Below are positions 1-17,117 of a DNA stretch of 64,000 bases, piece by piece. The stretch's first letter is position 1. Each line of letters begins with the position of its first letter. The stretch is from a virus: the IMG/VR virus record IMGVR_UViG_3300043137_000281; one strand, 5' to 3'. A program made the translations under genes and the position numbers. Below the pieces are notes generated by a model. The model was not told where the DNA came from. It saw nothing but the letters and a program-made list of their open reading frames with translations, and searched no databases.

Positions 1-477
1 ATTGAGGAAGAAATTCAGTTGCTTCTCCATCGCCGATTACGGCAACGCCTGTCCTCCGAATTGTCGCACTTGCCCGTGAACAAGAGTCGCTTACAGTCTG
101 ACTCAGAACAACTGGATACTGATTTAGGGAATTCGCAAGAACTCTATCAGTCCCCATCCGATCAGGCTCAGGATAAAGTATAGTGCCACCAACAAGAGCA
201 GCCCCTCTGCCATAAATGTCCCCAATAATTTTAGCATGGACTTCCCGCGGGAAAGGCCACTGGCCATATTTCTCAATTGCTTTCTCCCCAATATTGACTG
301 TTACAATTTGCTCGGATTGCGTTGGCGAACCGAGCATCAAATAATCATAAAACTTCAATCTTGTGGATTCTACCATGTATGGGTCAGATAGTTTTACCCA
401 AAGAAGAATACTAAAAGTAAGTAGCGCCAACCAAGGCGAGAGTAAAACTTTTTTAGTTCTTTGTGTAAGAGTATCCA
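1..477 (-). CDS. CHASE2 sensor-domain protein, N-terminal part. The ORF starts at 477 and runs off the window start
   Basis: Hand translation of the minus strand from the ATG at 477 gives MDTLTQRTKKVLLSPWLALLTFSILLWV (TM helix) then DPYMVESTRLKFYDYLM...VNIGEKAIEKYGQWPFPREVHAKII, which looks CHASE2-like. There is no stop before position 1. It overlaps the upstream gene by 24 nt. Confidence 0.45.
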
Positions 478-1907
478 TTACATGGTCCAGTCGTGCATGT
501 TATTTCCATTTTCGCAGAGTCGGCGGCAGTCAAGTTATTTTGTGTAACCGTTACACCAATTCCAGGACTATTTAGTAAAAGTTGAAATTGTTTTGCAGAC
601 GAACCTAGTTGAGTAACAGATGCAGTAACTCCGCCGAATGGAGCATTTATTTCTAAGAAGTGATTGCCAGCACCTTCTTGTAACGCACTGATAACATTAG
701 TATTTCCTAAAGCATTGATAAACAACGATTTTTCATTGACATCTTTTTGCTGGGCAGTTATTTGATTGCCCAGACCATTGGTTACAATCTCAGCATATTT
801 ACCAGCATATTGTTGTGTCAGTGATACAATGTTGTTGTTACCAGTAACAGAAACTTCTGCCAAGTTCTTACCGATTGGCGTGGTAGCTGTACCTTGATTG
901 ATAGTGATGTTGTTACCACTACCATTGATTGTCATAGCTTGTGCGCCATTGACACCCCGTATCTGGTTCTGCTTAGAAAACTGTTCAATATAAACTGAGT
1001 TGTTAGAGCCAGTTGCATTGATGTAGATAGAGTTTTGAGTAATAGAATTTTTTTGATTAATCTTTAGTGTTTGGTTAGCACTAATTGATGCAAGAGGATA
1101 AGTGGGTGCAGGTGGTTCAGGAGCAGGCGGTGGCGGTGCAGAAGAACCAGCATTCGGAGCAACTGGTGTAAAGGTTGTTCCGTTGAGTGAAGTTGTTCCT
1201 TGCATTTGGTCGATGAATAGAATTGGTGACAATGCTGTATCGCCTAGATTGAACGAGGCAAACCCTAGTAGATAGTTGCCATCTGTAGGTACAGTGAACA
1301 CCGCGACTTGCCAACCAGTAGCACCGTAAGAACCTACAGAATAGTTACCAGTTCCTTGATTGGTGAATCCCAGAAGCGCGAAGTCTTGTGTTTGACCGTT
1401 GATGGTGGCAGTTCCTGGACCACCCGTAACTGTGATCATCGAACCATCATTATATGGAACATAGTCGGTCGATAGATACTGCCAAGCATAAGTGTATGTC
1501 ACTCCCGCTTGAAGAAATACCGTTCTACTAATAGAAGTTGCGTTTGTAGGATACATGTTACCGTTGGAGTAAATAGTATTCTTGATTGACGTAATCGTAG
1601 AACTTTGTAATCCCAAGGTAGACATAGCACCATCAAATCCAGGAGAACCACCCCCTGCTTGTAGAGATACCATGTATGAACCATATGGTGTAACAGTCCA
1701 ACACTTGCCACCACCCGGACAATAGTTAGTCATACCAGTTGTTACTTGAACACCCGAACCATCTGGACCCCACGAGGTTCTTGCTGTGGTCGAACCATTA
1801 CTTACTGTCCAACCAGTATAGTTTCCATTTTCGAAACCATAGTTAGTAACTTGTGCAAATACTGGCATCGCAAAAAATAATAGAAAGAGAGCGGCTAGTC
1901 TTTTCAT
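453..1907 (-). CDS. Secreted protein: N-terminal carbohydrate-binding-module-like domain, Pro-rich linker, C-terminal curlin-like (Q-x-G-x-x-N) imperfect repeats
   Basis: Signal peptide MKRLAALFLLFFAMPVFAQ. The N-terminus has a GFENGNYTGWT motif. Then comes a PPPPAPEPPAP linker. The C-terminal about 200 aa has repeated N/Q/G-rich units (SVYIEQFSKQNQIRGVNGAQAMTINGSGNNITINQG...) resembling CsgA/CsgB repeats. Confidence 0.55.
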   Translation of the reverse strand: MKRLAALFLLFFAMPVFAQVTNYGFENGNYTGWTVSNGSTTARTSWGPDGSGVQVTTGMTNYCPGGGKCWTVTPYGSYMVSLQAGGGSPGFDGAMSTLGLQSSTITSIKNTIYSNGNMYPTNATSISRTVFLQAGVTYTYAWQYLSTDYVPYNDGSMITVTGGPGTATINGQTQDFALLGFTNQGTGNYSVGSYGATGWQVAVFTVPTDGNYLLGFASFNLGDTALSPILFIDQMQGTTSLNGTTFTPVAPNAGSSAPPPPAPEPPAPTYPLASISANQTLKINQKNSITQNSIYINATGSNNSVYIEQFSKQNQIRGVNGAQAMTINGSGNNITINQGTATTPIGKNLAEVSVTGNNNIVSLTQQYAGKYAEIVTNGLGNQITAQQKDVNEKSLFINALGNTNVISALQEGAGNHFLEINAPFGGVTASVTQLGSSAKQFQLLLNSPGIGVTVTQNNLTAADSAKMEITCTTGPCNGYSYTKN

Positions 1908-3049
1908 CTTACACCGGTTTCCTGCATCACCGTAATATTACCTTGTGGTCTACCTGTTCCCGATGATGTCCATTTATCGTCCATGAAGTTATACGCATCA
2001 ACTAGTCCGTTTTGAACTGAAACTACTTGCGCCTCAGTTCCCTTTTCTAACCAGATAGTAACTGCTTGCTGTTTATCCTCTGACAAGCGAGTATACACCC
2101 ACCCTACCTGAACGTTCTTCTTGAATATCGGGGAGACATTAGTATAGACTGTTTCTGCTGGCGTATTACCTTCATTATATTCAGCAAAAACTTCTAGTAG
2201 CTCTTGCGGTGTTGCTGGTCGACGCATCGCCGCGGCGACTTGTTCGACGTTATCGGTTGTGCCCGCATCAGGATCTTTATTGTCGTCCGATGCTGCTTTT
2301 GCCGGATTGGTAAATTTCTTCAAACTGTCTCTAGCAAGTTGTAAGAGACTTTGCCCATCATCTGTTTCCAAAGGAACAATTTGAACGTTGTTATCTAGCG
2401 TCTTCAATAGAGGATTGATAATCACGGGTGGTGCAGGTGGTGCAAAGTTGTTTTCGACAACAGTTGCTTGGAATGGTTGGTTTAGTGTGACCACACCTGA
2501 CGCAGTGATAACATCAATCATTCCATTAGGACATTCGGCAGTTTGCTTTGTAATATCTAATTCGTTATAGCATTCGGGAACCAGCACGACCGTAGAACGG
2601 CCTGCTTCATCAACCGACATAACGAAGTCTGTGCCACGAACTGCGATAGTAGCAGTTGGTGTGCGAATGTTTACGCCTTTTCCATTACTGTGGGCGATTT
2701 TACCTGAAGTGTATCTGACAGTTCCAAGCGCGACCCGAAGTCCAAGTTTACCCTTCGTCTTCCCTCCCCCATCATACACAAAGTCATCCACAAGAAGTCG
2801 AGAGTTTTCTGTAATATTAACTGTGGTCGAGTCATTGAATGTAATCCTAAATCTACCCTGAGAGTTGGTAGACACTGTGTCCATCTTTTGAACTCTCGCG
2901 CCTTTGGTAGCGAGAGTTGTTTTAGCACCACGCTTAATAGCACCACCACCTCTGAAATCTGTTATCGACCCTATGTCAGCAAAAGCTGGAGTCGATAACA
3001 GAAAAATCAGTAGAAGATTAGTGACCAGTTTTGATATTAAAGATACCAT
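1904..3049 (-). CDS. Secreted FecR-domain-like protein
   Basis: Signal peptide MVSLISKLVTNLLLIFLLSTPAFA. The motif NIRTPTATIAVRGTDFVMSV matches the FecR-domain core. Start and stop overlap the neighbouring genes (translational coupling). Confidence 0.45.
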   Translation of the reverse strand: MVSLISKLVTNLLLIFLLSTPAFADIGSITDFRGGGAIKRGAKTTLATKGARVQKMDTVSTNSQGRFRITFNDSTTVNITENSRLLVDDFVYDGGGKTKGKLGLRVALGTVRYTSGKIAHSNGKGVNIRTPTATIAVRGTDFVMSVDEAGRSTVVLVPECYNELDITKQTAECPNGMIDVITASGVVTLNQPFQATVVENNFAPPAPPVIINPLLKTLDNNVQIVPLETDDGQSLLQLARDSLKKFTNPAKAASDDNKDPDAGTTDNVEQVAAAMRRPATPQELLEVFAEYNEGNTPAETVYTNVSPIFKKNVQVGWVYTRLSEDKQQAVTIWLEKGTEAQVVSVQNGLVDAYNFMDDKWTSSGTGRPQGNITVMQETGVR

Positions 3050-3791
3050 TTGATCCCACGCTGTTGATGTTGATCACAGTTTCCGATGCACCATATTGTT
3101 GCGTTGTTATGGTGTTTAGAGAACCTGTTAGATTTACATACAGAGAGTGACCGAATGTCCCACCGAGGTCAGTTTGTGTAACATCAAAATCATTGTAGTT
3201 ACCTGTTACTAGGATTGTCTGTGATGCATTCGGTGATAGTGCATCCATATTGATTGTGTTATTGTTACCATTGAACTCCATTGAGTTGCGGATATTAGCG
3301 CCGGAACCACGGAAAACAAAGGCATTATTATTGCCAGTGAACTTAGCATTCATGTCAAGTTGGTTACACGAAGAATCTGATTGTAATACTCCGCAACGGA
3401 TATCTGCGGTATTCAGGTCACCGATTTGACGAATTGTTACATCGGCGATTCCTTGGGCACCTGTGTCAGATACGACGCCCATATAGAGCGAGTTTCCATT
3501 GCCTGTTTGTATTGCGATGACGCTTTGGTTGTCACCACGTAGGTAAATAGGATCAATAGCAGAACCGATGACATTAGCAGTCCCAGTTTGAACAACGTTA
3601 ACATCTACGTTATCTCCTTGCTGATCGATATACACCTTATTGGTTGTGGCAACAGAATTGGCTTCTGTTTCATTTGGCGAAGTTGTTACGATTGCTGGTG
3701 GAGTTGGTGCTGTTGGTAGCACAGTTTGTGCAATCGCAGATGTTCCATAACAAAGAGCAGCGCCAACGAATAAAAACTTACTTAGTTTCAT
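3018..3791 (-). CDS. Curlin-repeat secreted protein (CsgA/CsgB-like candidate amyloid subunit)
   Basis: Likely start at MKLSKFLFVGAALCYGTSAIAQ (RBS AAGGAAA 7 nt upstream). The ORF track start at 3839 is probably too long. Repeats include VYIDQQGDNVDVNVVQTGTANV, IAIQTGNGNSLYMG, FVFRGSGANIRNSMEFNGNNNTINMD. Confidence 0.5.
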   Translation of the reverse strand: MKLSKFLFVGAALCYGTSAIAQTVLPTAPTPPAIVTTSPNETEANSVATTNKVYIDQQGDNVDVNVVQTGTANVIGSAIDPIYLRGDNQSVIAIQTGNGNSLYMGVVSDTGAQGIADVTIRQIGDLNTADIRCGVLQSDSSCNQLDMNAKFTGNNNAFVFRGSGANIRNSMEFNGNNNTINMDALSPNASQTILVTGNYNDFDVTQTDLGGTFGHSLYVNLTGSLNTITTQQYGASETVININSVGSNGIFNIKTGH

Positions 3792-4608
3792 TTGTCGTTT
3801 CCTTTTGTTTGAATCTCCATAGATTTTTCTTTTCACCATCCTTGATCAACTCAACAACGGCCGTTTCTATGGCAGAACGGATCGCATAACTACCTGCTTC
3901 ATTACTTGTTTGTTGCCCATCAAATTCAAATGCTTTTGTTGCCATGTCGAAGAATGTAAAAGCAGTAACTCCCTCAGATGTGGAGAGAACTGTTTTCTCT
4001 ACAGTAACCGAATTGAGAACTTCGCCGGTTTGGACAGAAACTAGACGAAGACTAACTGTAACTTGGTCTTGTGTATATTGCTGATATGGACCGACGCCAA
4101 GGAAGCGAGCACCAGTACCACCGGTCTTAATGTTTGAGTTATAGTCGATAATACCACCTTCAATGATGATACCCGCAACTTTCAATGGAGGCAGAGGTTC
4201 AGCACCTTCACCTGAAATCTGTTCACGCATTTGACGAACAAGTTGACGTTCTTTGATTAGCGAATCAATACCAACACGTTCAACAGGAACAAACCACTTA
4301 CCATCACCGGTATCTTGTAATGTCTTAATCAAATATGCATCTGCACCCTGAGTAACCGCAGTAGAGAAACTTGCAAGAGTAGAAGATGGTTTACGTTGAC
4401 CAGTTCTATCTGTAAATGAATACAGTGCAATAGGAATTGGTTGACCATCTAACTCTGGTAGATTCTTGAACAGTTTTGGATTAGCAAAACGCTTGACTTC
4501 GGCATCGTCTCTGAATAGATATGATTGGTTAGCAGTAGGATGAAGCGCACCAACACAACCAGAAGTTGCAAGAAGAAGTGGAAGGAGAATTAACTTTTTC
4601 ATCGTCAT
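3778..4608 (-). CDS. csgG: CsgG-family curli secretion lipoprotein
   Basis: Lipoprotein signal MTMKKLILLPLLLATSGC. Long collinear similarity to E. coli CsgG: SFTDRTGQRKPSSTLASFSTAVTQGADAYLIKTLQDTG.WFVPVER and IIEGGIIDYNSNIKTGGTGARFLGVG...QYTQDQVTVSLRLVSVQTGEVLNSV. RBS GGAG before ATGACGATG. Confidence 0.8.
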   Translation of the reverse strand: MTMKKLILLPLLLATSGCVGALHPTANQSYLFRDDAEVKRFANPKLFKNLPELDGQPIPIALYSFTDRTGQRKPSSTLASFSTAVTQGADAYLIKTLQDTGDGKWFVPVERVGIDSLIKERQLVRQMREQISGEGAEPLPPLKVAGIIIEGGIIDYNSNIKTGGTGARFLGVGPYQQYTQDQVTVSLRLVSVQTGEVLNSVTVEKTVLSTSEGVTAFTFFDMATKAFEFDGQQTSNEAGSYAIRSAIETAVVELIKDGEKKNLWRFKQKETTNETK

Positions 4609-4612
4609 CTCC

Positions 4613-5062
4613 TTAGAACGCAAACGTGGCAATAGGAACAGTAACAACCGTAGTATTACCATTCTTATCGACAACTGTTAGGGTGACTTCTGTTCCAGTC
4701 TTGACGTAACTCACGGAGTTGCCATCAAGATTGAACGTGCCGGTGCTGGCATTCCCACCTTCTGCGAACAGATTGTTAGAAAGTTGTGTAGCAAGTTGCG
4801 CATAAACCTGAGATGTAAACAGCGCCATAAACTTTGCAAGAGGAGTGTTTGATGCTTCCGCCCTCGCTAGTGCCGCTTTTGCTGCCTCAGCATCTTTGAT
4901 TGCTTGTTCCCGAGAACGCTCTTGTGCATCGATTGATTGCACATGTGAAGACCACCCATAACCAGTAAAGGAAGGTGATTTAAACTGTTGAACAATGGGG
5001 TCGGCGTATGCAGGACTACTTAGACTTAGTAGTAGCAGGAGCATCGTCGCTCGTTTTAGCAT
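4613..5062 (-). CDS. csgF: CsgF-like curli assembly/secretion protein
   Basis: Signal peptide, then PIVQQFKSPSFTGYGW (compare CsgF MTFQFRNPNFGGNPNNG). The C-terminus GNTTVVTVPIATFAF resembles CsgF ...TSTIQVSGLQNNSTDF. Good RBS AAGGAAGAG. Confidence 0.6.
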   Translation of the reverse strand: MLKRATMLLLLLSLSSPAYADPIVQQFKSPSFTGYGWSSHVQSIDAQERSREQAIKDAEAAKAALARAEASNTPLAKFMALFTSQVYAQLATQLSNNLFAEGGNASTGTFNLDGNSVSYVKTGTEVTLTVVDKNGNTTVVTVPIATFAF

Positions 5063-5127
5063 GTTTCTCTTCCTTTATAGTTTTATTTGAAGAAAAATCT
5101 AACTCAAGCGTAAATACTTTAAGGATC

Positions 5128-5394
5128 TCAATTTTTATTTTTAACATCATTACTGTGATCCTCTTTTATTTGCAATACAACACTCACCTTCTGATTTAAT
5201 CTGATAAGATCGTTATCTAACATACGAATTCGGTCAATCAACGCGATCAAAATTACATTTGTCTCGCCAATCAACGGCATTAATTTATCTGTTACGAATT
5301 TATAAATGAACCACACGAAATATCCCATACCGACTGATGCCACAATGGGAAATCCATACTGCTTCACAAGGTCTGCAATCAGTTGCGGATCCAT
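5128..5394 (-). CDS. Small membrane protein, BhlA/UviB holin-like; paralog of the next gene
   Basis: N-terminal TM segment (GFPIVASVGMGYFVWFIY) followed by a coiled-coil tail. Shares the pattern GFPI.A...G..FV.F.......L.NR....L..D.IR with ORF 5394..5681. Confidence 0.4.
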   Translation of the reverse strand: MDPQLIADLVKQYGFPIVASVGMGYFVWFIYKFVTDKLMPLIGETNVILIALIDRIRMLDNDLIRLNQKVSVVLQIKEDHSNDVKNKN

Positions 5395-5681
5395 TAGTCC
5401 CGCCTTGCGTCATTCTTCCCGTCGGCTCGTGCAATTCTATCAAGGTCTGGTTTCAAACCCAAAGCGGAACTAACAACAGCATCAACGCGAATAATATCAT
5501 GGTTCATGGTCTTCACTCGGTTATCTAACCCCATGATAATACCCTGCATTCCCTTGATTGCCTTTACAACGCTCTCAAGAATGTAGTTGATGACAAAATA
5601 CACAAAGACACCACCGAGCAAGGCCGCTGCGATGGGGAATCCTACATCTCCAATAAGTTTAAATATAGTATCGTATGACAT
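5394..5681 (-). CDS. Small membrane protein, BhlA/UviB holin-like paralog
   Basis: Probable true start is MSYDTIFKLIGDVGFPIAAALLGGVFVYFV. The ORF track extends to 5792, but the homologous region starts at the internal Met. Confidence 0.4.
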   Translation of the reverse strand: MSYDTIFKLIGDVGFPIAAALLGGVFVYFVINYILESVVKAIKGMQGIIMGLDNRVKTMNHDIIRVDAVVSSALGLKPDLDRIARADGKNDARRD

Positions 5682-6642
5682 ATCACTTCTATTTATAAAT
5701 AAAAGTAAAAAAGGAACAGATTTAGTGACAGCAAATACAATTTTATCTGACATTAACGAAATCTGGACCGGGTATGTTATCAACGGTAACAAATGGTTTG
5801 ACCCTGTGGCCCAAGTGCAGTTTAATCAGCGCACAAAACAAGCAACAAAAGAAGAAGTTGATGATGCCAAGGGTAAGGCCGAAGCGATGGCAAAAGAATT
5901 CATCGCATGGGCTAAGACTAAGAAGTATTCTGGTACGGTGTCGGGTGTATATTGGACTGCTAGACCGGGATCTATGACTTCCGCAGTCGGAGTTGAAGTC
6001 GATCAGAAGAAAAACCCAACTGATATTCTAGTTAAATTCACTTTTGGACCAGCAAATGGGTTTTTGGGTCTATCCGCAAAAGCAACAAAGGGCAGCGGCG
6101 ATATTGGCTTCAAAAATCCGGGAATCGGCACTGTTGATAAGTCGCTGGGACTAGATTTGGCAGACACGAACAAGAAATTAGAAGACGAAGTAGTAAAAGA
6201 ACTCAAACTACCAGAGTCCAAGACGTTAAGAAAGTCTTATATTAGACAGAGACCCGCTTTAAAAAAGATAACTGAGAAAAAAGGCTCAGAAATTATGTCT
6301 AAGTTGCGTGATGCGCTCTTAGTCAAGCTAAAATCGATGCAAACTAAGAATTTGCGCGCCTATATTATCAGTGATTGGATGGATGCAGAAGAAGTTTACC
6401 CTCCATACATCAAAGTAACAGGAAAAGGGAGCAAAGCTCCCTATACTGCCGACACAACTGACCCATTGAACAATACAAAACTGTCAAAACTGATAGCCGC
6501 GACAACAATTACCTTGACAAAAGAGGGAAATGAGTCAATTGGTGTTGCTGTCAACGGCTCTCATATAATGAAAATGCGTTTTAAGTATGAATCAGAGAAA
6601 GTTGCTTCTTCTATGAAGCTATCTGGCGACCCCTGGCCTTAA
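5587..6642 (+). CDS. Hypothetical protein; the only plus-strand gene in the first 35 kb. True start may be the GTG near 5725 after AAGGAA.
   Basis: Long ORF with lysine-rich composition. Divergent from the minus-strand genes on both sides. Confidence 0.4.
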   Translation: MMTKYTKTPPSKAAAMGNPTSPISLNIVSYDISLLFINKSKKGTDLVTANTILSDINEIWTGYVINGNKWFDPVAQVQFNQRTKQATKEEVDDAKGKAEAMAKEFIAWAKTKKYSGTVSGVYWTARPGSMTSAVGVEVDQKKNPTDILVKFTFGPANGFLGLSAKATKGSGDIGFKNPGIGTVDKSLGLDLADTNKKLEDEVVKELKLPESKTLRKSYIRQRPALKKITEKKGSEIMSKLRDALLVKLKSMQTKNLRAYIISDWMDAEEVYPPYIKVTGKGSKAPYTADTTDPLNNTKLSKLIAATTITLTKEGNESIGVAVNGSHIMKMRFKYESEKVASSMKLSGDPWP

Positions 6643-7580
6643 ACGAATTCGTCTACGTCTAGTGCCATTGAATATTTTGTGTCTGGCGGCAGAGTAATCA
6701 GCTTCATACCATAATTGTTGACGCCTTCGGGAAGAACAACGCCGTCTTTTAGCTTCAATGTATTCTTCTTGAACGGCGTATAGTCAACATAGTGATGCCA
6801 GCGACCATAACGCCATACAACACGAGCAACATCTGGGTGCATATCAGCCAACATCTGTGACTTGTTGATGGTACCCTTCTCGTGGTAACGCTTGCCTTCT
6901 ACTTCTTCACCCTCTTCCAAGAATTCTTTGTGATAGAACTCTGCGGTGTTACCACCCTTGATGGTCTGTGTAGCAACTTTACCCTGCAAGAACGCATTGA
7001 ACTGCACCGTGCAGTCACCATCTTTGAGAACGCGAAGACAGATATCGGTATCTTCATTGTAACGACCGCGCCAACGATGCTTACAATCGTTGCGGATTAG
7101 CAATGTCGAGTAGATACGAGTGTTTGCGACATACGGAGGATACTTCTGGTTCGGTGCAATGAAGAAACGATACTGCGGACCAGCAATGTAAAGGTTCTCA
7201 TAGCGGTCAAAGAAGTCTTCCATGACAGTGAAGAACACACCAGACTCTACGCGAATACGTTCGTTGCGATGAAGACGATAGAAATCTGAAATGTTATCGT
7301 CTAGAACCCAGTGAGCGGTAGCACCAATACTGATAGAGTGGTCCCATGCCCAGTTTCTAGCACGACCAGGACCATCTCCGTGATTGGAGAACGGAGCAAC
7401 AAGCAGAGTTACATAATCAGTTAGACCAAAATTGATTTTAGCCTGTTCATAGTCTGCTTCATCTTGAGGTTCGATGATGATATAATGCGGTATCTTCATG
7501 CGAGTCAGCGACCGCGAAGTAATCATAGTGTCAGCGCGTCCCTTAGAAACAATGTAAACGGGATACTTAGGGTTAGTCAT
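6639..7580 (-). CDS. Hypothetical protein, paralog of 7580..8443 (possible transferase)
   Basis: The N-terminus PVYIVSKGRADTMITSRSL aligns with RIFIPTVKRADNQITYNNL of the adjacent gene. Confidence 0.5.
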   Translation of the reverse strand: MTNPKYPVYIVSKGRADTMITSRSLTRMKIPHYIIIEPQDEADYEQAKINFGLTDYVTLLVAPFSNHGDGPGRARNWAWDHSISIGATAHWVLDDNISDFYRLHRNERIRVESGVFFTVMEDFFDRYENLYIAGPQYRFFIAPNQKYPPYVANTRIYSTLLIRNDCKHRWRGRYNEDTDICLRVLKDGDCTVQFNAFLQGKVATQTIKGGNTAEFYHKEFLEEGEEVEGKRYHEKGTINKSQMLADMHPDVARVVWRYGRWHHYVDYTPFKKNTLKLKDGVVLPEGVNNYGMKLITLPPDTKYSMALDVDEFV

Positions 7581-8443
7581 TAAAATAAATCCTCCAAATT
7601 ACCTCTTTGGGCCGAACCAAGGGCTTCACTCCAGCGTATTTTACTCTTACCAAAATCACGAAATCCACCTTTGATACGCTCACCAGTCTTATCGTCATAT
7701 AAAATTGTGAAAATACCAGGGAACATCGATTCAACTATCTTATGATCCCGCTGTGTATTCTCATACGTCTGTTCATCCCACACAGTAGAAGTCATATCAG
7801 CTTTGTGGACACTGTTATTAAAGAATACAAACTCTTGACTGACACGATTGCCATAACCATGAGCCAATAAACTCAAAAGAAAAACAACATCTTCTGCGAC
7901 TTTCACGCGAGTTAGTTCAAGTTCGGGTAGTAAGTCTTTGAAATCATTACCATTTACAAAGATTGCACTACTAAGAGAAGAGTTGTTGCTATACGCACTG
8001 TCTTGTGGTGGGTTCTCGGCATGACCAGGACCACATACTGTCACAGTCGCATCGTCTAACCACTTACTATATAGGTCAAACATTTCTAGGACATCTTCGT
8101 CTGTAGCTTTACGCTTAGACATTTCCATGTTAGACACGCCAGTCCAGTATTTGGCGTTGCGTCTACCGAATGTAAGGTCATCATCAATAACTGCATACTT
8201 CATATTCTGTCCAGCCTCGTAGATTATCTTACGAGTCTTGGGTAAGCAATAGTAGTCAGTCAGATTGATTTCTTCTGGCAACACCAGATACTCGCATGGG
8301 TAATGATATTGGTCACGCTCCCACGCCTGCACAACCATCGTTACTCTACTCTTCAACTCTTCGGGAAGATTATTGTATGTAATCTGGTTGTCAGCCCGCT
8401 TGACTGTGGGAATGAAGATACGTTCAATCATTCTTCCACCCAC
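7580..8443 (-). CDS. Hypothetical protein, paralog of 6639..7580
   Basis: Shared N-terminal KxRADxxIT motif. Tandem paralog pair with a start/stop overlap. Confidence 0.5.
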   Translation of the reverse strand: MGGRMIERIFIPTVKRADNQITYNNLPEELKSRVTMVVQAWERDQYHYPCEYLVLPEEINLTDYYCLPKTRKIIYEAGQNMKYAVIDDDLTFGRRNAKYWTGVSNMEMSKRKATDEDVLEMFDLYSKWLDDATVTVCGPGHAENPPQDSAYSNNSSLSSAIFVNGNDFKDLLPELELTRVKVAEDVVFLLSLLAHGYGNRVSQEFVFFNNSVHKADMTSTVWDEQTYENTQRDHKIVESMFPGIFTILYDDKTGERIKGGFRDFGKSKIRWSEALGSAQRGNLEDLF

Positions 8444-9039
8444 CGCAGAAGATAGTTTGGTGTTCGCTCTAGCTTGGGGTGCCAGATAGCCTTAGACTTA
8501 TCCGTTAGCACCTGGTCAATACGCCGCGAGAACTCTTCATAGTCCTCAAGCCGACGGAACTTCACAATCACCGACCGAATGGGACCACTATCTTCTAGAT
8601 ACTCAAACTCTGGCATCCCCACCCAATGCTCTTTCCAAGCACTCTCTTCCGTTTCGTTCACTTCCACTTCAAGCGAAGCTAGATTCTTATCCTTTCGCGG
8701 AGCGCACAAACGCATATCCACATCCACCAATGGCACTTGGCCATCGTCAAACAGCGAAGCGCGAGGGTCTGCCAAAGGGTACCAGAAGTCTTTCAGGTTA
8801 TTCGCTACGATATACCCGATACGTTTCGAGAAGTCTACGATATCCTCAACGCTGCGGAAGTGGACGTAGATAGCCTTCCATAAATCAGGGTCGACCTTAC
8901 GCTTACCAGAATTATCCGCAAGGGGCGTATCTATCACCCCTACCAAATGCTCCAGGGACATGCGATACTCGTCTTGCATACGCGCATCTTGGTCCAGATA
9001 GTTTTCGTATTCGCCAGATTCTTTTACATCTACCGTCAT
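8428..9039 (-). CDS. Hypothetical protein with internal tandem duplication
   Basis: The modules HFRSVEDIVDFSKRIGYIV and KFRRLEDYEEFSRRIDQVL repeat within one protein. Confidence 0.45.
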   Translation of the reverse strand: MTVDVKESGEYENYLDQDARMQDEYRMSLEHLVGVIDTPLADNSGKRKVDPDLWKAIYVHFRSVEDIVDFSKRIGYIVANNLKDFWYPLADPRASLFDDGQVPLVDVDMRLCAPRKDKNLASLEVEVNETEESAWKEHWVGMPEFEYLEDSGPIRSVIVKFRRLEDYEEFSRRIDQVLTDKSKAIWHPKLERTPNYLLRWVEE

Positions 9040-9048
9040 AACATCTCC

Positions 9049-9588
9049 TTATTCCACCAATATACCACTATCGTCACCATTTGTCAAGAGTTTCCACTCT
9101 TCTGGACTAATTTCTTTACAGTTTTTAAGAAAATATAGGTAACACGAATACTCTGCTTTCAACTCTGGTGTAATCTCAATAGTAGAGTGGTGTGTTGCTA
9201 CAGTATCCGTAGAGACAGTAAGAGAAGACTTAGAGATATACTCAGATAATCTATCGAACCTTATTATCTCAAATGGGATAGAAGCATCTATTAGAGATAG
9301 ATACGGAGAATTGTGGGAGTTTATCCATTCCTCTCGTGTAATCTTTTTCCGAGACTTTTTAGAGTATGTTTTTCTACTAGCATCATTCGCATCAAATCTT
9401 CGTGTAGATACCCACCTATCAAAAGGATGTCTTATTACAAGAATTCGTCTAGAAGTAGAGTGTAACCAGCGAGAAAGATCCGCATCATTTTGAGAATAGG
9501 GAACAATGCCGAAGTATTCATACATTGAAGTATGACCGCATCGTGCAGCGGTAAACACACATACTTTACCATTGTCATGTATGAACAC
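9049..9588 (-). CDS. Sulfotransferase-like protein
   Basis: A 5'-PSB-like motif VCVFTAARCGHTSM and a 3'-PB-like motif VIRHPFDRWVS. This is the pattern of PAPS-dependent sulfotransferases. Confidence 0.45.
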   Translation of the reverse strand: MFIHDNGKVCVFTAARCGHTSMYEYFGIVPYSQNDADLSRWLHSTSRRILVIRHPFDRWVSTRRFDANDASRKTYSKKSRKKITREEWINSHNSPYLSLIDASIPFEIIRFDRLSEYISKSSLTVSTDTVATHHSTIEITPELKAEYSCYLYFLKNCKEISPEEWKLLTNGDDSGILVE

Positions 9589-9595
9589 TTAGAAT

Positions 9596-9820
9596 TTACT
9601 TTCTGTATTGTTTAACGATAGAAGCATCAACTAACTTCCACAGAATTTGCTCAATCATATTGGCTTCTTCATCCATATCCATAGCAAAGAGGGCATTCTG
9701 TAGCATACCTACTGAACCATCTACGAGCGCGTCGAAGTAGGGCGTATCAGCCTGCAACGCTTCTTCAAGTGTAGTCACGGGTGCAAACGGAGTGCCATCA
9801 ATCTTAGTAACGTTATTCAT
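9596..9820 (-). CDS. Hypothetical small protein
   Basis: ORF 74 aa, tightly packed. Confidence 0.35.
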   Translation of the reverse strand: MNNVTKIDGTPFAPVTTLEEALQADTPYFDALVDGSVGMLQNALFAMDMDEEANMIEQILWKLVDASIVKQYRK

Positions 9821-10062
9821 TATATTACCTCATCTATTTAGGTGCCAAATCTGGCCGGAAAAATTTTTTGGGTGCCAGGAAATAAAAATTGCGGTGCGTG
9901 GCGGTGCGTGGCAGCTTTTTTTGGTCCACAGGAAGACCTTTCAAAGCTCTAGTGTGTGCTAAACCCCCGGTCCACCACCAACCGTGTGGAGATTTTCTAT
10001 ATGGCTTTCCTGGCTCTAAGTCTGTGCAACCACTACGGACTACAACCTATACCAACTACAAC
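9821..10062. promoter_or_regulatory. About 240-bp repeat-containing intergenic region (candidate regulatory region or origin)
   Basis: Tandem GCGGTGCGTG x2. Direct repeats GGTGCCA(AATCTGG)/(GGAAATA). A/T runs (AAAAATTTTTT, AAAAATT, TTTTTTT). No convincing ORF. Confidence 0.3.
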
Positions 10063-10287
10063 TCACTTCATGGCCCTACGGAGCCGTGCCATATCTTTGT
10101 CCATAAAGTCACCATCGGCTGCCCACTGACGGAACGCTACACATTCTAGTCCCTTAGCGCCACACTCTTCCATCATAGGACATCCATCACAGGGTACATC
10201 CCGTGCGGACTCTGGTGTTCCAGTATCCAATAGAGCATTCCGTGAAGGTTCATGTTGATAATACTGATCAAAACCTATCATATCCAT
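10063..10287 (-). CDS. Cys-rich small protein
   Basis: CDGCPMMEECGAKGLEC motif. Confidence 0.35.
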   Translation of the reverse strand: MDMIGFDQYYQHEPSRNALLDTGTPESARDVPCDGCPMMEECGAKGLECVAFRQWAADGDFMDKDMARLRRAMK

Positions 10288-10299
10288 AATATAATTCCT

Positions 10300-10509
10300 T
10301 TAAACACCAAAGTCATCGATGATTTGCTCTACAGCGATCTCAATAATCTTCTCGAAATCATCATCTGGATGAAGCGAGTGATCGATGGAGACATCATTGT
10401 AGATTTCACTACAGGCTTGTTCAGCCAGCTTACCATGATTACCACTAATGCATTCATAAAAATACTCATAGGGGTCTTCATGAGCGGCGATTTGTTCAAA
10501 TAAATTCAT
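10300..10509 (-). CDS. Small acidic protein
   Basis: 69 aa, D/E-rich. Confidence 0.35.
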   Translation of the reverse strand: MNLFEQIAAHEDPYEYFYECISGNHGKLAEQACSEIYNDVSIDHSLHPDDDFEKIIEIAVEQIIDDFGV

Positions 10510-10521
10510 AATGTAATTCCT

Positions 10522-10854
10522 TTAGAGATAACGTGGGCCAGTCCACTGGATGCTATACCCACCGTCTACGATGTTACCACGTGCTTTGTTCTTCGTAGGT
10601 GCATTCCAACCGGCGGCTTTGAGGATATCACCCTTACGGAAACCCTTAGCGCAATCTTCTTTCTGAATGAAACCCCACACGCTGTTCTGTGTCACGATGC
10701 GGATATACTTACGGCCTTCTTCGACCCGGATACCCTCTACGAACTCGTCATACATACGGTCGTTGATCTCGCTGCGTGGCTTACCACTGCATGTCTGCCA
10801 TGCGCGGTAATCGGCGTTGATGTCTTGGATTAGCTGTTCAATCTGGTTCTGCAT
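10522..10854 (-). CDS. Hypothetical protein
   Basis: Preceded by a conserved promoter-leader cassette (10855-10920). Confidence 0.5.
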   Translation of the reverse strand: MQNQIEQLIQDINADYRAWQTCSGKPRSEINDRMYDEFVEGIRVEEGRKYIRIVTQNSVWGFIQKEDCAKGFRKGDILKAAGWNAPTKNKARGNIVDGGYSIQWTGPRYL

Positions 10855-10920
10855 GATTCGTTCTCTTTCTTCTGACTACTATTTCACTATACACGATTCG
10901 CAGGGAATGTCAAGCGGTAA
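10855..10920 (-). promoter_or_regulatory. Conserved promoter (TTGACA-17-TATAWT) plus 30-nt leader cassette, copy 1
   Basis: rc: CCGCTTGACATTCCCTGCGAATCGTGTATAGTGAAATAGTAGTCAGAAGAAAGAGAACGAATCATG. Confidence 0.55.
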
Positions 10921-11074
10921 TTCGCATTGGATTACCATGTGGTGTAATTAGTTCGGTATACCGTATGCCCGTTTGGACACGCATGTAATTCCAGAACTTA
11001 CGAGCATCTTCGAAAGATTCGAACATCTTTGTCTTGAGGGCGTAGTTATAATAGCGATACTGGACTTTATACAT
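10912..11074 (-). CDS. Hypothetical small protein (54 aa, MYKVQYRYYNYALKTKMFE...)
   Basis: Hand-translated. The start ATG overlaps the stop of the upstream micro-ORF (ATAATG). Its stop codon lies inside the -35 TTGACA of the next promoter cassette. Confidence 0.3.
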
Positions 11075-11175
11075 TATACAATCTCCGCAGGGACGAGTTC
11101 ATAACCAGCAACAAGGTCTTCACGAACAATCTGGAACATCACGAAGGCGACAACGGCAAGAGCAAACAACCACAT
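11074..11175 (-). CDS. Micro-ORF, 33 aa membrane peptide (MWLFALAVVAFVMFQIVRED...)
   Basis: Starts exactly at the conserved leader ...GTGATTCGAAAATG. Confidence 0.3.
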   Translation of the reverse strand: MWLFALAVVAFVMFQIVREDLVAGYELVPAEIV

Positions 11176-11236
11176 TTTCGAATCACTTTCTTCTCACTGA
11201 CTACTTACTCAATATAGCAGATTCGTCAGTAATGTC
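11176..11236 (-). promoter_or_regulatory. Promoter-leader cassette, copy 2
   Basis: rc: GGTTGACATTACTGACGAATCTGCTATATTGAGTAAGTAGTCAGTGAGAAGAAAGTGATTCGAAAATG. Confidence 0.55.
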
Positions 11237-11404
11237 AACCATTCATTTCGCTGTGCCTTAGTGATTGATTCAATAGAGTTATTCTTTAGTCGCTACACTC
11301 CTTTATAACATGGTCCAGCTGATTCGTCAAGAGTTTTATACAAAAAAGGTCCCCGAGTCGAAACCCGAGGACCTAAGTGTGACCTAGCGAAAGGAAAGTA
11401 AAAC

Positions 11405-11581
11405 TAGGTCATAATGAAACGCGGTGGCATAGCCCGTGGCATACGCCTGTTGATATAGGTAGTGGCATATTGCTCTACGGCCTGCTTGGTACCACGTCGG
11501 TCCGCTACCCAGGAACCGTCAACGTATAGGTCCAGCAGGTAGGTGCCGGGCTTTATCTTCGTAATGGTATAGTCTCGCATG
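11405..11581 (-). CDS. Hypothetical small protein (58 aa)
   Basis: Hand-translated. RBS GGAG 7 nt upstream. Clean sigma70-type promoter TTGACA-17-TATATT at about 11610-11645 (minus strand). Confidence 0.3.
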
Positions 11582-11609
11582 GTAGTTCTCCAGTGTGATT
11601 CGTATTATC

Positions 11610-11645
11610 TATAATATAACACAGACGGACCATGGTGTCAAGATA
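11610..11645 (-). promoter_or_regulatory. Sigma70-type promoter (different class) for the small ORF at 11405..11581
   Basis: rc: TTGACA-CCATGGTCCGTCTGTGT-TATATT. Confidence 0.4.
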
Positions 11646-11826
11646 AAAAACACCGTGGGTGGTCCAAGGAAAACTTTTTTGCCAAAGCATTTATCTCAGC
11701 CTATGGACGTAAGGTTTCTCTCTTTATCCGTGGTCTAGTTCATGGACACTGGATTGCGAATAATATACTAATAGTTAGAGGTTATTGCTAACCTTTATGT
11801 GGGATTTACTAGGGGTTCACCCAGGT

Positions 11827-12024
11827 TCACCAACTTATCCAAGTCAACGTGGTTAGAATAGCCCCTACCGCTGCTGCATTGAGGAGTGTTACCTTTGTTA
11901 TTGCGTTCTTCTTGATATCATTCACTACAATAGCGACATTTAATACCAATAGGATTATACCAATTGCTGTCATAATCATACTAGGATAACCAATACAACG
12001 ATGATTGCTACTACTAATGACCAT
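11827..12024 (-). CDS. Small membrane protein
   Basis: 65 aa, two hydrophobic helices. Confidence 0.3.
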   Translation of the reverse strand: MVISSSNHRCIGYPSMIMTAIGIILLVLNVAIVVNDIKKNAITKVTLLNAAAVGAILTTLTWISW

Positions 12025-12301
12025 TCTATTGGTCCATAGCTACTGATATTCTCTCTTATATACTGTATCATACTGGTATCTCTTTATACAAAAATAATGA
12101 AAATTTGTTCATTTCGGAGCCTGAGTGTTTGAAAACTTTATCGGCGGTTGAGCCACGCGGCTGCGCAACGGTTGAGCGTCTCGGTGCTGTCGTCCAGTCT
12201 TAGTAGCCGTTTTATCCTACGTGGGTTCATCGGTACTGGGTTGGTATAGTCTGTTGCTCGGTATACCTCTCCTAGGAGGATATTGACCATGGACTCTCTA
12301 C

Positions 12302-12535
12302 TCATAGTATCTTCTCGGCTTCTACATACCATTGGTATCGTTCGGGATAGGTGGCTAGATAGTAGGCTTCGGCCTTTGCGAAAGTCTCGAATACACCTAC
12401 CATATTGTCCATACCAGACGAATCATCTGACCCGTAGTTTACATATAACAGATATACCATCATTGTGCTATTCCTAATGCGTTGCGCATTTTCTTCTGAG
12501 CATCTTCCACACCTTGCTGGTATGCTGCTTCCCAT
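12302..12535 (-). CDS. Hypothetical protein
   Basis: ORF 77 aa. Confidence 0.35.
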   Translation of the reverse strand: MGSSIPARCGRCSEENAQRIRNSTMMVYLLYVNYGSDDSSGMDNMVGVFETFAKAEAYYLATYPERYQWYVEAEKIL

Positions 12536-12678
12536 ATCTTCTGTGTGTAAATATGAAGGGTTGTGGCTACATGCTCGGGATTATCTAATGGATATAGGAC
12601 CAGACCACCGCCTAATACTACAGACTTATCATGTGGTGTGGGACAATACCCTGCGAAATATTTTATTGGTTTGTTCAT
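12460..12678 (-). CDS. Hypothetical protein
   Basis: ORF 72 aa. Confidence 0.35.
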   Translation of the reverse strand: MNKPIKYFAGYCPTPHDKSVVLGGGLVLYPLDNPEHVATTLHIYTQKIWEAAYQQGVEDAQKKMRNALGIAQ

Positions 12679-12696
12679 AGTTCATCTCGGCCGGGG

Positions 12697-12879
12697 TTAG
12701 TAGTTTATGACTTGCTTACAAGCATCTTCATATGACAGGTCAACATCGATTACTGTTCCATCTACTAGATTTACATATACCTTCTCTGGCCATGGGCCTG
12801 TAGTGTATGTTACACTGATAACATGATTAACATTGATGTAATGCTTCTGTCCAGATCTTGCTGTAAACTCAACGAACAT
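12697..12879 (-). CDS. Hypothetical protein
   Basis: ORF 60 aa. Confidence 0.3.
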   Translation of the reverse strand: MFVEFTARSGQKHYINVNHVISVTYTTGPWPEKVYVNLVDGTVIDVDLSYEDACKQVINY

Positions 12880-13267
12880 TTAGATAACCCTTCCAGTTCT
12901 CTGGGAATGAACAGTTGATTGCACCTTTGAACATGGGTGCGACATCCTCGTCTTTATTGCCTGCTAGACCACAACCTACACGGGTCACGAAGAACTCCAT
13001 GTCTGGGTTCTCTAGCGTGAATAGGACAAATGTCTCCACATGGCTTCGGACTTCTTCTAGTGATAGACATTCGAAATTTGCAGTCTTGGTCGGGATTGCA
13101 TATGAATTACCTACCAGACCTTCGCCTTGGCCGAGCAATGCGCCGTACCGAAGTCTTGCTTCCAATGCAGCACCAGCACCATGCTTACCGCCTAAGTTAG
13201 AGCCGAATACGAATATGCGGCCGTCTTTGGGTGTGGTCTTGTCAACGTGGAATATCATTGTTTCCAC
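12869..13267 (-). CDS. Hypothetical protein with motif VFGSNLGGKHGAGAALEARLRYG
   Basis: ORF 132 aa, Gly-rich motif. Family not recognised. Confidence 0.45.
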   Translation of the reverse strand: METMIFHVDKTTPKDGRIFVFGSNLGGKHGAGAALEARLRYGALLGQGEGLVGNSYAIPTKTANFECLSLEEVRSHVETFVLFTLENPDMEFFVTRVGCGLAGNKDEDVAPMFKGAINCSFPENWKGYLNVR

Positions 13268-13461
13268 CTATCCTTATATTCAAGATAGTTCAATATGCCG
13301 CTATACAAGCAATATAATGCTCCGCCCACCAGCACCAACAATATTACCAGCGGAAACCTTGCGATGAGAACCGTCAAGATAGCCACGGAGATTGGTATTG
13401 CTAAGGTGATTAGCCAGGCTTTAAGTTTGATATTCATTTGCTTTCCTCTTTGGTGTTCCAC
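13255..13461 (-). CDS. Small membrane protein
   Basis: 68 aa, two TM helices. Confidence 0.35.
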   Translation of the reverse strand: MEHQRGKQMNIKLKAWLITLAIPISVAILTVLIARFPLVILLVLVGGALYCLYSGILNYLEYKDRWKQ

Positions 13462-13664
13462 TTGAAATGGTTGCGAGTATAGACGATGGCGAGTGCAATA
13501 CTCATAGGGATTAGACCCCAGGCTTGGCTAGCGATTATCCATGTTACCCATAGGACTTGATTGACAAGCCCGACTGCCCATGCGGACTGATTGTTGTTAC
13601 CAGCTAGGAGCGTCATCCAGATGGTCATGCAAGACATCAGCCACGGGAGGTATGTTACTATCAT
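13434..13664 (-). CDS. Small membrane protein
   Basis: 76 aa, Trp-rich TM helices. Confidence 0.35.
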   Translation of the reverse strand: MIVTYLPWLMSCMTIWMTLLAGNNNQSAWAVGLVNQVLWVTWIIASQAWGLIPMSIALAIVYTRNHFKWNTKEESK

Positions 13665-14119
13665 GCGGTTTCATCCAGTCTCTGCCGAATTTCAAGGTAA
13701 AACTGATTGTATTTGGCCAACCGAGCGATATCCTTTTCAGTGATGCCCTTGAGGCGACGGATATCGGTGTTGTGGCGCAAGTCTGCCATCTTAACACGCA
13801 TAGCATCAAGATTGGCAAATACCTCTAGCTTATACTCATCGTAGGACTGACCGGGCATCTTGGTCAACACTCGAACGGCACTGATAACACGACTGGTGCA
13901 ACCAATCTCACGCAGGTCTTCCCATGTGGTGTTGGTGTCTTCGATAACGTCATGAAGCAATGCGATGCACTGGAGTTCTTCGTCTGTTGTCTTGAGGTAA
14001 TGCATCACCTTCAATGGGTGAAGAATGTATGGGTTACCGCCGCGGTCAAACTGACCTGCATGGGCATTCGTGGCTAGGACGAGGACTTTACCGAGTAGTT
14101 CACCTTTTTTCATAATCAA
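13661..14119 (-). CDS. HD-domain (p)ppGpp hydrolase (small alarmone hydrolase, RelA/SpoT HD family)
   Basis: HAGQFDRGGNPYILHPLKV...LHDVIEDT is the diagnostic HD motif of the SpoT/Mesh1 hydrolase domain. Confidence 0.65.
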   Translation of the reverse strand: MIMKKGELLGKVLVLATNAHAGQFDRGGNPYILHPLKVMHYLKTTDEELQCIALLHDVIEDTNTTWEDLREIGCTSRVISAVRVLTKMPGQSYDEYKLEVFANLDAMRVKMADLRHNTDIRRLKGITEKDIARLAKYNQFYLEIRQRLDETA

Positions 14120-14182
14120 TCTCTTTCTCTATATTCTTATAGTAGACGATTCGAGACCAAATGTCAAGTGATTCTTACGCCG
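14120..14182 (-). promoter_or_regulatory. Promoter-leader cassette (variant leader), copy 3
   Basis: rc: CACTTGACATTTGGTCTCGAATCGTCTACTATAAGAATATAGAGAAAGAGATTGATTATG. Confidence 0.5.
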
Positions 14183-14282
14183 AACCACCATAAATCTACA
14201 CGGAAGAACCAGCGCCCGTTGTGCTTACCAAAGCCTATACGGAGCATACGGTTGTCGGTGTCAAGCGATATCTGGGTCAAGG

Positions 14283-15713: not shown

Positions 15714-15964
15714 AAATCCATATCAATTCTTACACGTTCTACCTGTTCCCATTCGGTGGGATTGGATACCACCTGACCATACTGGTCATAGTGCCACATG
15801 CGGTATTGGAGTTCTGTCTTGACAAGACGGAGACCCTTGGTGTATTCTACCACTCTAATCTCCATCTTCTCAGGCAGAGGGACGTTGATAGGCGGCAGGG
15901 GAGGAATGGTCGGCTGTGTGACCGCCACTGACCGTGGATTCATCATCATAGTTGCGTTACTCAT
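15710..15964 (-). CDS. Hypothetical protein
   Basis: ORF 84 aa. Confidence 0.4.
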   Translation of the reverse strand: MSNATMMMNPRSVAVTQPTIPPLPPINVPLPEKMEIRVVEYTKGLRLVKTELQYRMWHYDQYGQVVSNPTEWEQVERVRIDMDL

Positions 15965-16122
15965 CGGTCAGCCTTTCTATCTCATTGATGGCCCGTTGCA
16001 ATGACTGCAACTCGGCACCCATATCCATTACACCATGGGCATCACGGTTCTGGAGGAATACCTCTGCCATGTCCCAGCACTTGGCTTCACGCCAGCGGAG
16101 GTTGTCGATGGCTTCCTGTTCT

Positions 16123-16512: not shown

Positions 16513-16657
16513 TGCGGGGTCCGCATGTTCGACGGTAACAGTATTTGAACACCAATTTGGAATGACACTTCTCCTTCAAAAATAATAGATTTTAGACTAA
16601 CTATTTCAGTATAACAGAATAAACGTTATGTAAATACCTGAAGGCCTTTAGCCATAA

Positions 16658-17048: not shown

Positions 17049-17117
17049 TAACGAATCACTTTCTTCTCACTGACTACTATCTAACAGTAGCAGGTTTTAC
17101 CAGAATGTCAACCCCTA
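17049..17117 (-). promoter_or_regulatory. Promoter-leader cassette, copy 4
   Basis: rc: GGGTTGACATTCTGGTAAAACCTGCTACTGTTAGATAGTAGTCAGTGAGAAGAAAGTGATTCGTTATG. Confidence 0.55.

Follow-up and report, generated by a model that had tools for sequence, protein, structure and literature searches.

The 64,000-nt window analyzed here (the whole stretch of DNA taken from IMG/VR virus record IMGVR_UViG_3300043137_000281) begins with a series of minus-strand genes that constitutes one copy of a phage-borne type VIII secretion system (T8SS, or curli) module, organized as an eight-gene operon that occupies positions 1–5697 and continues for ~1.6 kb beyond position 1. The genes follow one another in the order small transmembrane (TM) protein A, small TM protein B, CsgF, CsgG, curlin protein 1, FecR-domain protein, curlin protein 2, and CHASE2-cyclase. 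The carrier is a divergent, uncultured T4-like myophage, and accounts of the same module in marine phages of SAR11 and OM43 already date from 2013–2022. An earlier note on this DNA had outlined a six-gene unit; the six minus-strand open reading frames (ORFs) do lie where it placed them, while the size of the unit does not stand, as the pair of genes at 5128–5681 brings it to eight.

All eight module genes are under strong purifying selection. In pairwise Nei-Gojobori comparisons with 17–24 related loci, the ratio of nonsynonymous to synonymous substitution rates (dN/dS) was 0.03–0.14 across the module, at dS of ~0.6–1.0. The values were 0.034 for CsgG, 0.04 and 0.066 for the small proteins of types A and B, 0.042 for CsgF, 0.068 and 0.072 for curlin proteins 1 and 2, 0.073 for the FecR-domain protein, and 0.136 for the cyclase, which is the least constrained and also the largest module gene. 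The curlin genes are thus constrained like CsgG and CsgF, and two neighboring phage genes gave similar values (0.075–0.087). Junctions among the six core genes, as read from the ORF coordinates, are overlaps of 4–32 nt or gaps of 4 nt, and N-termini resembling signal peptides can be made out in the translations. The features are collected in Table 1, where the start of the type A gene was set at ATG 5681 by alignment with its orthologues.

Table 1. Features of the module and of its upstream motif, in order from the 5' end of the unit.
Feature	Position	Strand	Basis or remark
T4 late-promoter consensus TATAAATA	5690..5697	-	8 nt 5' of the module's first gene
Small membrane protein type A, 95 aa	5394..5681	-	PHROG 18771, E=4.5e-29; first module gene
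Small membrane protein type B, 88 aa	5128..5394	-	PHROG 18771, E=1.7e-31; paralogue of type A
CsgF homologue, 149 aa, with signal peptide	4613..5062	-	Pfam PF10614, E=5e-18; PHROG 35372, E=1.2e-34
CsgG homologue, 276 aa, lipoprotein	3778..4608 (ORF 3778–4674)	-	Pfam PF03783, E=1.2e-52
Curlin-repeat secreted protein 1, 257 aa, CsgA/B-like	3018..3791 (ORF to 3839)	-	Curlin_rpt PF07012
Secreted FecR-domain protein, 381 aa	1904..3049	-	PF04773, E=1.2e-12; PHROG 37870, E=1.2e-60
Curlin-like secreted protein 2, 484 aa	453..1907	-	Sub-threshold Curlin_rpt, E=0.066; periodicity, profile cross-matches
N-terminal part (159 aa, with the TM helix and the beginning of CHASE2) of a 687-aa CHASE2-adenylate cyclase	1..478	-	Translation

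Relation to described curli systems

A tblastn search with the window CsgG led to Pelagibacter phage HTVC008M (KC465899) and Methylophilales phage Melnitz (MZ577097), both Kyanoviridae. In both GenBank records the order is CsgF, CsgG, curlin-associated protein, FecR-domain protein (a hypothetical protein in the HTVC008M annotation), curlin-associated repeat protein, and adenylate/guanylate cyclase, and the six core proteins of the window are collinear with these. The two modules resemble that of the window in having the same eight genes in the same order and a T4-like, Kyanoviridae-type myophage as a carrier. They differ from it in that amino-acid identity is only 25–48%, and in curlin protein 2, which in the window is 484 aa long with a large N-terminal beta-sandwich, as opposed to 338–441 aa in HTVC008M and Melnitz. 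The guanine-plus-cytosine (GC) content of the window, ~43%, is presumably higher than in these marine phages.

The earlier note took the module for a phage function not yet described; this does not hold, since the same gene order is annotated in HTVC008M and Melnitz and has been discussed in three papers. Zaragoza-Solas (2020) reported a "curli operon" in pelagimyophages, for which macromolecule uptake or "sibling capture" was suggested (PMC7029224). Buchholz (2022) modelled the CsgGF of Melnitz and suggested that it times lysis in the manner of a pinholin or secretin (PMC9004378). Wittmers (2022) described the full module, with CsgA/B-like subunits, FecR, and cyclase, in podo- and myophages, found it at all 65 GOV2.0 stations and also in ocean metatranscriptomes, and weighed superinfection exclusion, aggregation, and import as roles; CsgF, CsgG, and one curlin gene were universal, while the cyclase and a second curlin gene were frequent but not constant (PMC9599517). 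Aggregation, superinfection exclusion, and a repurposed pore, which the earlier note had also put forward, had all been proposed before. Beyond these three papers, no experimental test of phage curli and no report of curli in a freshwater phage were found in the literature.

The modules of HTVC023P-type pelagipodophages (PMC9599517), compared here from their published description, begin with one or two "HK" genes and continue with CsgF, CsgG, CsgA/B, and FecR, often with a second CsgA/B and a cyclase after these. Their carrier is a podophage, whereas that of the window module is a myophage. With the csgBAC-csgDEFG system of E. coli and Salmonella the window shares a CsgG lipoprotein channel, CsgF, and secreted subunits with Q/N/G-type curlin repeats of ~22–23 residues. 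It departs from enterobacterial curli in that CsgE, CsgC, and CsgD are missing from the module and that there is one operon in place of two divergent ones. The window further has two small TM proteins, a FecR-domain protein, and a CHASE2-cyclase that E. coli and Salmonella lack, its repeats are much more degenerate, and one of its subunits carries a globular N-terminal domain. The absence of csgE, csgC, and csgD equivalents had been noted earlier, and no Pfam match to any of the three was found among the eight module genes and their immediate neighbors (the rest of the window was not scanned), in agreement with PMC9599517.

Module proteins and the upstream motif

Profile searches bore out most of the assignments made in the earlier note. 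Pfam recovered CsgF, CsgG, curlin protein 1, FecR, and CHASE2, and only the 484-aa protein remained below threshold. The CsgF-like protein matches its Pfam profile over the full length (positions 4–132 of 132), and is 36–41% identical to its phage orthologues; its mature N-terminus, VQQFKSPSFTG, presumably resembles the CsgG-binding peptide of E. coli CsgF. The identification of CsgG as a lipoprotein is likewise upheld: phmmer aligned it with the E. coli CsgG structures 3x2r, 4uv3, and 6l7a (E=5e-48), with residues 3–270 collinear, and it is 39% identical to E. coli CsgG, with the lipobox cysteine aligned (…LLLATSG↓C). Because this cysteine is in register with that of E. coli CsgG, translation of the window protein likely starts at 4608 (MTMKK...SGC lipobox) rather than at 4674. 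The CsgG homologue is predicted to be an outer-membrane channel. Single-sequence phmmer searches of CsgF and of the curlin protein against PDB sequences returned nothing meaningful.

Curlin protein 1, which had been read as built from curlin repeats, scores 27.2 bits with Curlin_rpt (Pfam), above the gathering cut-off of 20.7; its matches to the NCBIfam CsgB/CsgA models are weak and far under the cut-offs. Within the family of this protein, the pattern N-x2-Y-x2-Q-x-G…Q-x-G-x2-N-x2-G is invariant in marine phages, in the window lineage, and in bacterial copies. The AlphaFold2 model has a mean predicted local distance difference test score (pLDDT) of 79, and residues 51–257 are all-beta, with regular repeats and pLDDT of 81–96. 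A Foldseek search of this model against the PDB gave beta-helix or solenoid proteins only, none of them significant, and in this non-significant list Pontibacter CsgA (8c50) ranks 30th (E=1.3).

Curlin protein 2 consists of an N-terminal beta-sandwich domain, a proline-rich linker, and C-terminal degenerate repeats of ~22–23 aa. The claim of the earlier note that these repeats are curlin-like, though it finds no backing in Pfam at threshold, is supported by the 23- and 45-residue periodicity of the C-terminal half, as in CsgA, and by profile comparisons, in which the C-terminal half is matched by profiles built from the curlin protein 1 family and the two curlin profiles cross-match. In the AlphaFold2 model the C-terminal repeats form regular strands (pLDDT 75–85), and the N-terminal domain is poorly modelled. 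Foldseek matches of this domain to jelly rolls of carbohydrate-binding modules (CBM) CBM61 and CBM4 and of the gingipain adhesin are weak and non-significant. Since none reaches E<=0.001, the other part of the claim, a CBM-like N-terminal domain, stays a weak lead. Altogether, the two models are consistent with a beta-solenoid in a general sense only. Every lineage examined carries one or more curlin-like genes. In the phage lineages represented by loci L029 (4081–10127), L110, and L111, the protein 2 gene is missing and FecR is followed straight by the cyclase, whereas protein 1 is always present; curlin protein 2 is therefore dispensable.

The FecR-domain protein, recognized as secreted in the earlier note and confirmed as a FecR-domain protein by Pfam, is 42–44% identical to its phage orthologues over the N-terminal ~230 aa and weakly similar to leptospiral LipL45 and Lsa33. 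The gene that runs off the edge of the window could be completed. An exact-sequence lookup of the 484-aa protein returned three JGI contigs (L003, L004, and L005) that are 100% identical to the window from position 1 to 6.4–6.7 kb; L003 and L004 reach ~3.1 kb past position 1 and contain the complete cyclase gene, and L005 ends inside it. The TM and CHASE2 sensor proposed in the earlier note thus acquires its output domain: the complete protein matches CHASE2 (PF05226, 1.6e-38) and Guanylate_cyc (PF00211, 5.3e-18) in Pfam searches. Hydrophobic segments lie at residues 10–28, 320–338, and 368–386, with CHASE2 between TM helices. The motifs FTDVRGFT, KYIGD, and GDGVNLAARLE are present and intact, and we take them to supply the metal-binding Asp, the substrate Lys-Asp, and the transition-state Asn-Arg of class III cyclases. 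The product of this gene, the sixth of the originally outlined unit, is by these sequence criteria a class III adenylate cyclase with a CHASE2 sensor. It was found in all complete loci.

A FecR gene beside a CHASE2-cyclase is also found outside phages. In a FecR scan of a genome collection, ~17 of the ~69 ordinary bacterial loci have this arrangement with curli genes absent, in taxa that include Alphaproteobacteria, Deltaproteobacteria/Myxococcota, one spirochaete, and one Omnitrophota metagenome-assembled genome (MAG). FecR and CHASE2-cyclase are an independent bacterial gene pair. Related arrangements have been published: the BiofilmReg operon of Burkholderia, where FecR is paired with a CHASE2 histidine kinase (PMC5192318), and the FecR/CHASE2 pair cyaD1-smc02177 of S. 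meliloti (PMC5498481). The bacterial pairs share with the module a secreted or periplasmic FecR-domain protein beside a membrane sensor with a periplasmic CHASE2 domain; they differ in lacking linkage to a T8SS and in that their FecR protein has a LysM domain, and in BiofilmReg the output domain is a histidine kinase, as opposed to the cyclase of the window module. We know of no CHASE2 domain with a known ligand. Because the pair recurs in bacteria without curli, the phage module looks like a T8SS combined with an already existing, borrowed bacterial pair for periplasmic sensing.

The small proteins of types A and B occur in a fixed order directly 5' of csgF in the window, in HTVC008M, in Melnitz, and in the other viral loci having that region. 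Type A has a single N-terminal hydrophobic segment followed by a predicted helical tail that ends in DGKNDARRD; in type B, position and order are conserved. In a collection of 50,697 phage records, PHROG 18771 genes are found only in the six records with a complete module; the seventh CsgG match in that collection is an unannotated 1.5-kb Salmonella phage fragment. The earlier note had used these genes, as "holin-like", to argue for a phage context. Because they are found only in records that carry the curli module, they are module-specific and are not independent evidence of a phage. Neither type has a relative in Pfam, NCBIfam, or the PDB, where the profile search gave weak coiled-coil matches (best E=0.057); the label "holin" was rejected because these searches gave no family. 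The two genes probably correspond to the "histidine kinase, sometimes two" of PMC9599517, which they match in position and copy number only. The label "histidine kinase" itself was also rejected, as the proteins are 88 and 95 aa long, HisKA and HATPase_c domains are absent, and similarity to histidine kinases is undetectable. As a separate observation, type A of the window (5394–5681) is 93% identical to that of L110 (1185–1472), while CsgG of the two loci is only about 48% identical. Either an unusually strong constraint on type A or a recent exchange of that single gene would account for this.

The sequence TATAAATA, the T4 late-promoter consensus, precedes the start codon of the first small gene by 8 nt. 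In 32 of 37 loci it is found within 45 nt 5' of that gene, mostly 4–8 nt before the ATG, and it is conserved even in lineages with unrelated upstream flanks. The unit thus probably starts at a late promoter. With TATAAATA only 4–8 nt from the ATG, a leaderless or near-leaderless mRNA is implied; we infer from T4 geometry, with a 5-nt spacer, that transcription would start on the A of the AUG. In the window the motif lies within the palindrome TATTTATAAATA (5690–5701), so that the plus strand also reads TATAAATA at 5694–5701. The palindrome is located between the curli module and a divergent plus-strand ORF, and may be a bidirectional late promoter.

Proposed function and competing explanations

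The module most likely serves to produce curli-like fibers on the infected cell late in infection, coupled to envelope-sensing cyclic AMP (cAMP) signaling. The T4-type late promoter abutting the first gene would drive the operon. The host Sec machinery would export CsgF, CsgG, both curlin-like proteins, and the FecR-domain protein, as their signal peptides and lipobox suggest, and by analogy with the E. coli CsgG–CsgF complex, CsgG would form an outer-membrane channel capped by CsgF. The curlin-like proteins could then cross the channel unfolded and polymerize on the surface into beta-solenoid amyloid fibers, on which curlin-like protein 2 would display a lectin-like beta-sandwich head. The periplasmic FecR-domain protein and the CHASE2 domain of the cyclase, as the bacterial pairs indicate, would turn an envelope or periplasmic signal into cAMP. 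Aggregation of neighboring host cells, exclusion of competing phages, and remodelling of the envelope before lysis are candidates for the pay-off to the phage.

Several observations weigh against fiber production. Fibers have not been experimentally shown for any phage copy, and Melnitz-infected cells were not clumped in cytograms or by transmission electron microscopy (Buchholz, PMC9004378). The curlin repeats are degenerate, protein 2 falls below the Pfam cut-off, and its AlphaFold2 model is poor overall (mean pLDDT 58.6). Foldseek searches with both AlphaFold2 models against the PDB, which includes solved CsgA, gave no match at E<=0.001. The N-terminal region of curlin protein 1 is rich in proline and threonine, and is presumably unlike the secretion signal of E. 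coli CsgA. The module is also without CsgE, the factor that delivers substrates and gates the channel in E. coli. As to late expression, the mRNA implied by the position of the motif, leaderless or nearly so, would be unusual, and TATAAATA overlaps the ATG in Melnitz and is missing in HTVC008M.

The most serious competing explanation, which we nevertheless consider unlikely, is that the CsgG–CsgF channel alone is used, and that the curlin-like proteins do not form fibers. The channel would then be a gated secretin- or pinholin-like lysis timer, or a conduit for solute uptake or efflux. With CsgE, the periplasmic gate, absent, such a channel could stand open, and the late-promoter-like motif is compatible with a lysis-associated role. 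CsgG is, however, an outer-membrane protein, so its opening cannot depolarize the inner membrane as a pinholin does. The lysis role was proposed for Melnitz from structural modelling and synteny, with the absence of clumping in its favor (PMC9004378), and uptake was put forward in PMC7029224 and PMC9599517. Against a pore-only function stands the constraint on all eight genes, fiber subunits included: purifying selection acts on both curlin-like genes, which encode signal peptides, as strongly as on CsgG and CsgF, no lineage examined lacks a curlin-like gene, and even the lineages of L029, L110, and L111, which drop protein 2, retain protein 1. CsgF, moreover, is conserved though dispensable for channel assembly (PMC7029224).

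It is also conceivable, though in our view quite improbable, that cAMP production is the main role of the module, and the T8SS is accessory to the sensor or provides its input. The FecR-domain protein and the CHASE2-cyclase would in this case report on the state of the envelope and reprogram host metabolism or transcription. Intact catalytic motifs, the presence of the cyclase in all complete loci, its size, and the autonomy of the FecR/CHASE2-cyclase pair in bacteria all fit such a role. Yet the cyclase is the least constrained of the module genes, no cAMP receptor is encoded among them as judged by Pfam, and in the published survey CsgF, CsgG, and a curlin gene were universal, which the cyclase, though frequent, was not (PMC9599517). 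Late-expressed, sensing-coupled fibers on the infected cell remain our preferred function for the module.

The carrier phage and a counterpart in Caulobacteraceae

Elsewhere in the window there are genes for a T4-type primase, both ribonucleotide reductase subunits, and an ATP-dependent ligase. The primase is nearest to that of Pelagibacter phage Mosig (41%) and to those of cyanomyophages, and Mosig is the closest cultured relative of the window phage. Megablast of window positions 1–5200 and 5200–25000 against the 50,697 phage records gave no match, so kinship to known phages is visible only at the protein level. An IMG/VR scan with CsgG returned 24 viral loci in which CsgG is 71–99% identical, on contigs of up to 171 kb. 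All but one of them (23 of 24) align to the window at 80–92% nucleotide identity. In ~20 of these 23 the alignment is a single unbroken block from the cyclase (about -1500) to about 5700, across the 5062/5128 junction, and the remaining three, which are short contigs, stop inside the module.

The view of the earlier note that the module is cargo of the phage, with matching base composition, thus withstands scrutiny. That positions 1–5062 are host DNA misjoined to a phage contig, or a decaying remnant of a bacterial operon, deserves practically no credence, even if the three short JGI contigs all stop at 6.4–6.7 kb, just beyond the module, and several module-bearing contigs are binned in MAGs of assorted bacterial phyla: the junction at 5.06–5.13 kb and both flanks are continuous in the ~20 independent viral contigs of sufficient length, and module GC (42.4%) matches that of the whole window (43.5%), which excludes misassembly; T4-type genes border the module in other phage lineages as well; the dN/dS values rule out decay; and the MAG contigs in question carry the phage-specific small genes at 32–41% GC and are probably mis-binned phage. 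A chimeric assembly was considered and rejected on the grounds of the continuous alignment.

The MAG contigs concerned (L030–L034, L037, and L039) come from MAGs of unrelated phyla, labelled as Bacteroidetes, Rhodobacteraceae, Luteolibacter, Pirellulales, Flavobacteriaceae, and Pelagibacter. We regard them as phage contigs probably mis-binned into bacterial genomes, with L030 the only one checked directly, by alignment to the window.

Nucleotide similarity to related viral contigs stops at about 5700–6640, where the three independent JGI contigs end. This region (~5725–6642) contains a plus-strand ORF of 305–350 aa without a match in Pfam or PHROG, and looks like a hypervariable spot beside the module. 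It is followed by two adjacent minus-strand paralogues, 6639–7580 and 7580–8431, of the TET-associated glycosyltransferase family (PF20691, E=2e-42 and 1e-8; PHROG 842), a pair that suggests sugar hypermodification of phage DNA. Farther into the window, 25 tRNA genes, all on the minus strand, form an array at 41291–48526 that covers most amino acids, a large number for a stretch of phage DNA of such length. Within the array lies a full-length GOLLD RNA (43734–44196, minus strand), which scores 194 bits with Rfam RF02032 (gathering score, 150) over model positions 1–416 and in which tRNA-Lys(ctt) is nested (44060–44133, minus strand). GOLLD RNA was first described from lake metagenomes. Together with the GC content of the window and lake-derived MAG names among related contigs, its presence hints at a different, possibly freshwater, host than SAR11 or OM43.

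A bacterial counterpart of the module was found in two Caulobacteraceae MAGs, CANGCO010000005 (L035, operon at 6990–13085) and CANGEH010000001 (L036, 7067–13124), with the order CsgF, CsgG, curlin, curlin, FecR, CHASE2/cyclase. The operon shares the six-gene core of the window module and differs from it in that both curlin genes are short and precede FecR, whereas in the window one stands before FecR and one after; the small TM genes were not detected in the L035 and L036 loci. GC is 54–57%. On the 82-kb L035 contig the operon is flanked by methylmalonyl-CoA mutase, acyl-CoA dehydrogenase, and similar bacterial genes. A mis-binned phage was rejected for L035 on the basis of these housekeeping flanks and a GC of 54%; L036 was judged chromosomal by GC and near-identity to L035 only. 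Identity between the window and L035 is 54% for CsgG, 55% for the cyclase, 40% for FecR, and 37% for CsgF. The window CsgG and cyclase are nearer to the Caulobacteraceae operon than to HTVC008M and Melnitz, and the cyclase is also nearer to L110 and L111. The nearest relatives of the bacterial copies are in turn these two T4-like phage contigs (CsgG 70–72%, FecR 68%), in which the module has gp45, gp44, RegA, and DNA polymerase B as neighbors. Because the closest kin of the Caulobacteraceae copies are T4-like phage copies, the sequence comparison shows an exchange of the module between phages and cells, in one direction or the other. The Caulobacteraceae operon qualifies the published claim that bacterial T8SS operons are without FecR and cyclase.

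A broader proposal, doubtful as a whole and offered here tentatively, would make the module a self-contained, late-expressed "sense-and-spin" device. The small membrane proteins would be new inner-membrane parts of a CsgE-less T8SS, the FecR/CHASE2 pair would couple fiber export or envelope state to cAMP, the cassette would move between T4-like phages and free-living Alphaproteobacteria (Caulobacteraceae), and the window would stand for a branch of this exchange outside SAR11, possibly one from freshwater.

Since the phage T8SS module has been published and annotated, the finding carries little weight as the discovery of a phage function. What the analysis adds is the eight-gene unit, the conserved late-promoter motif, the constraint, the Caulobacteraceae counterpart, and the independent FecR/CHASE2-cyclase pair. 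The module is extended into a divergent T4-like lineage, very abundant as judged from one gene (867 database clusters for curlin protein 2), that stands apart from the cultured phages of SAR11 and OM43, among which HTVC008M and Melnitz offer systems for testing the function of phage curli. If the cassette indeed travels between phages and cells, some curli systems of bacteria would descend from phages, or those of phages from bacteria.

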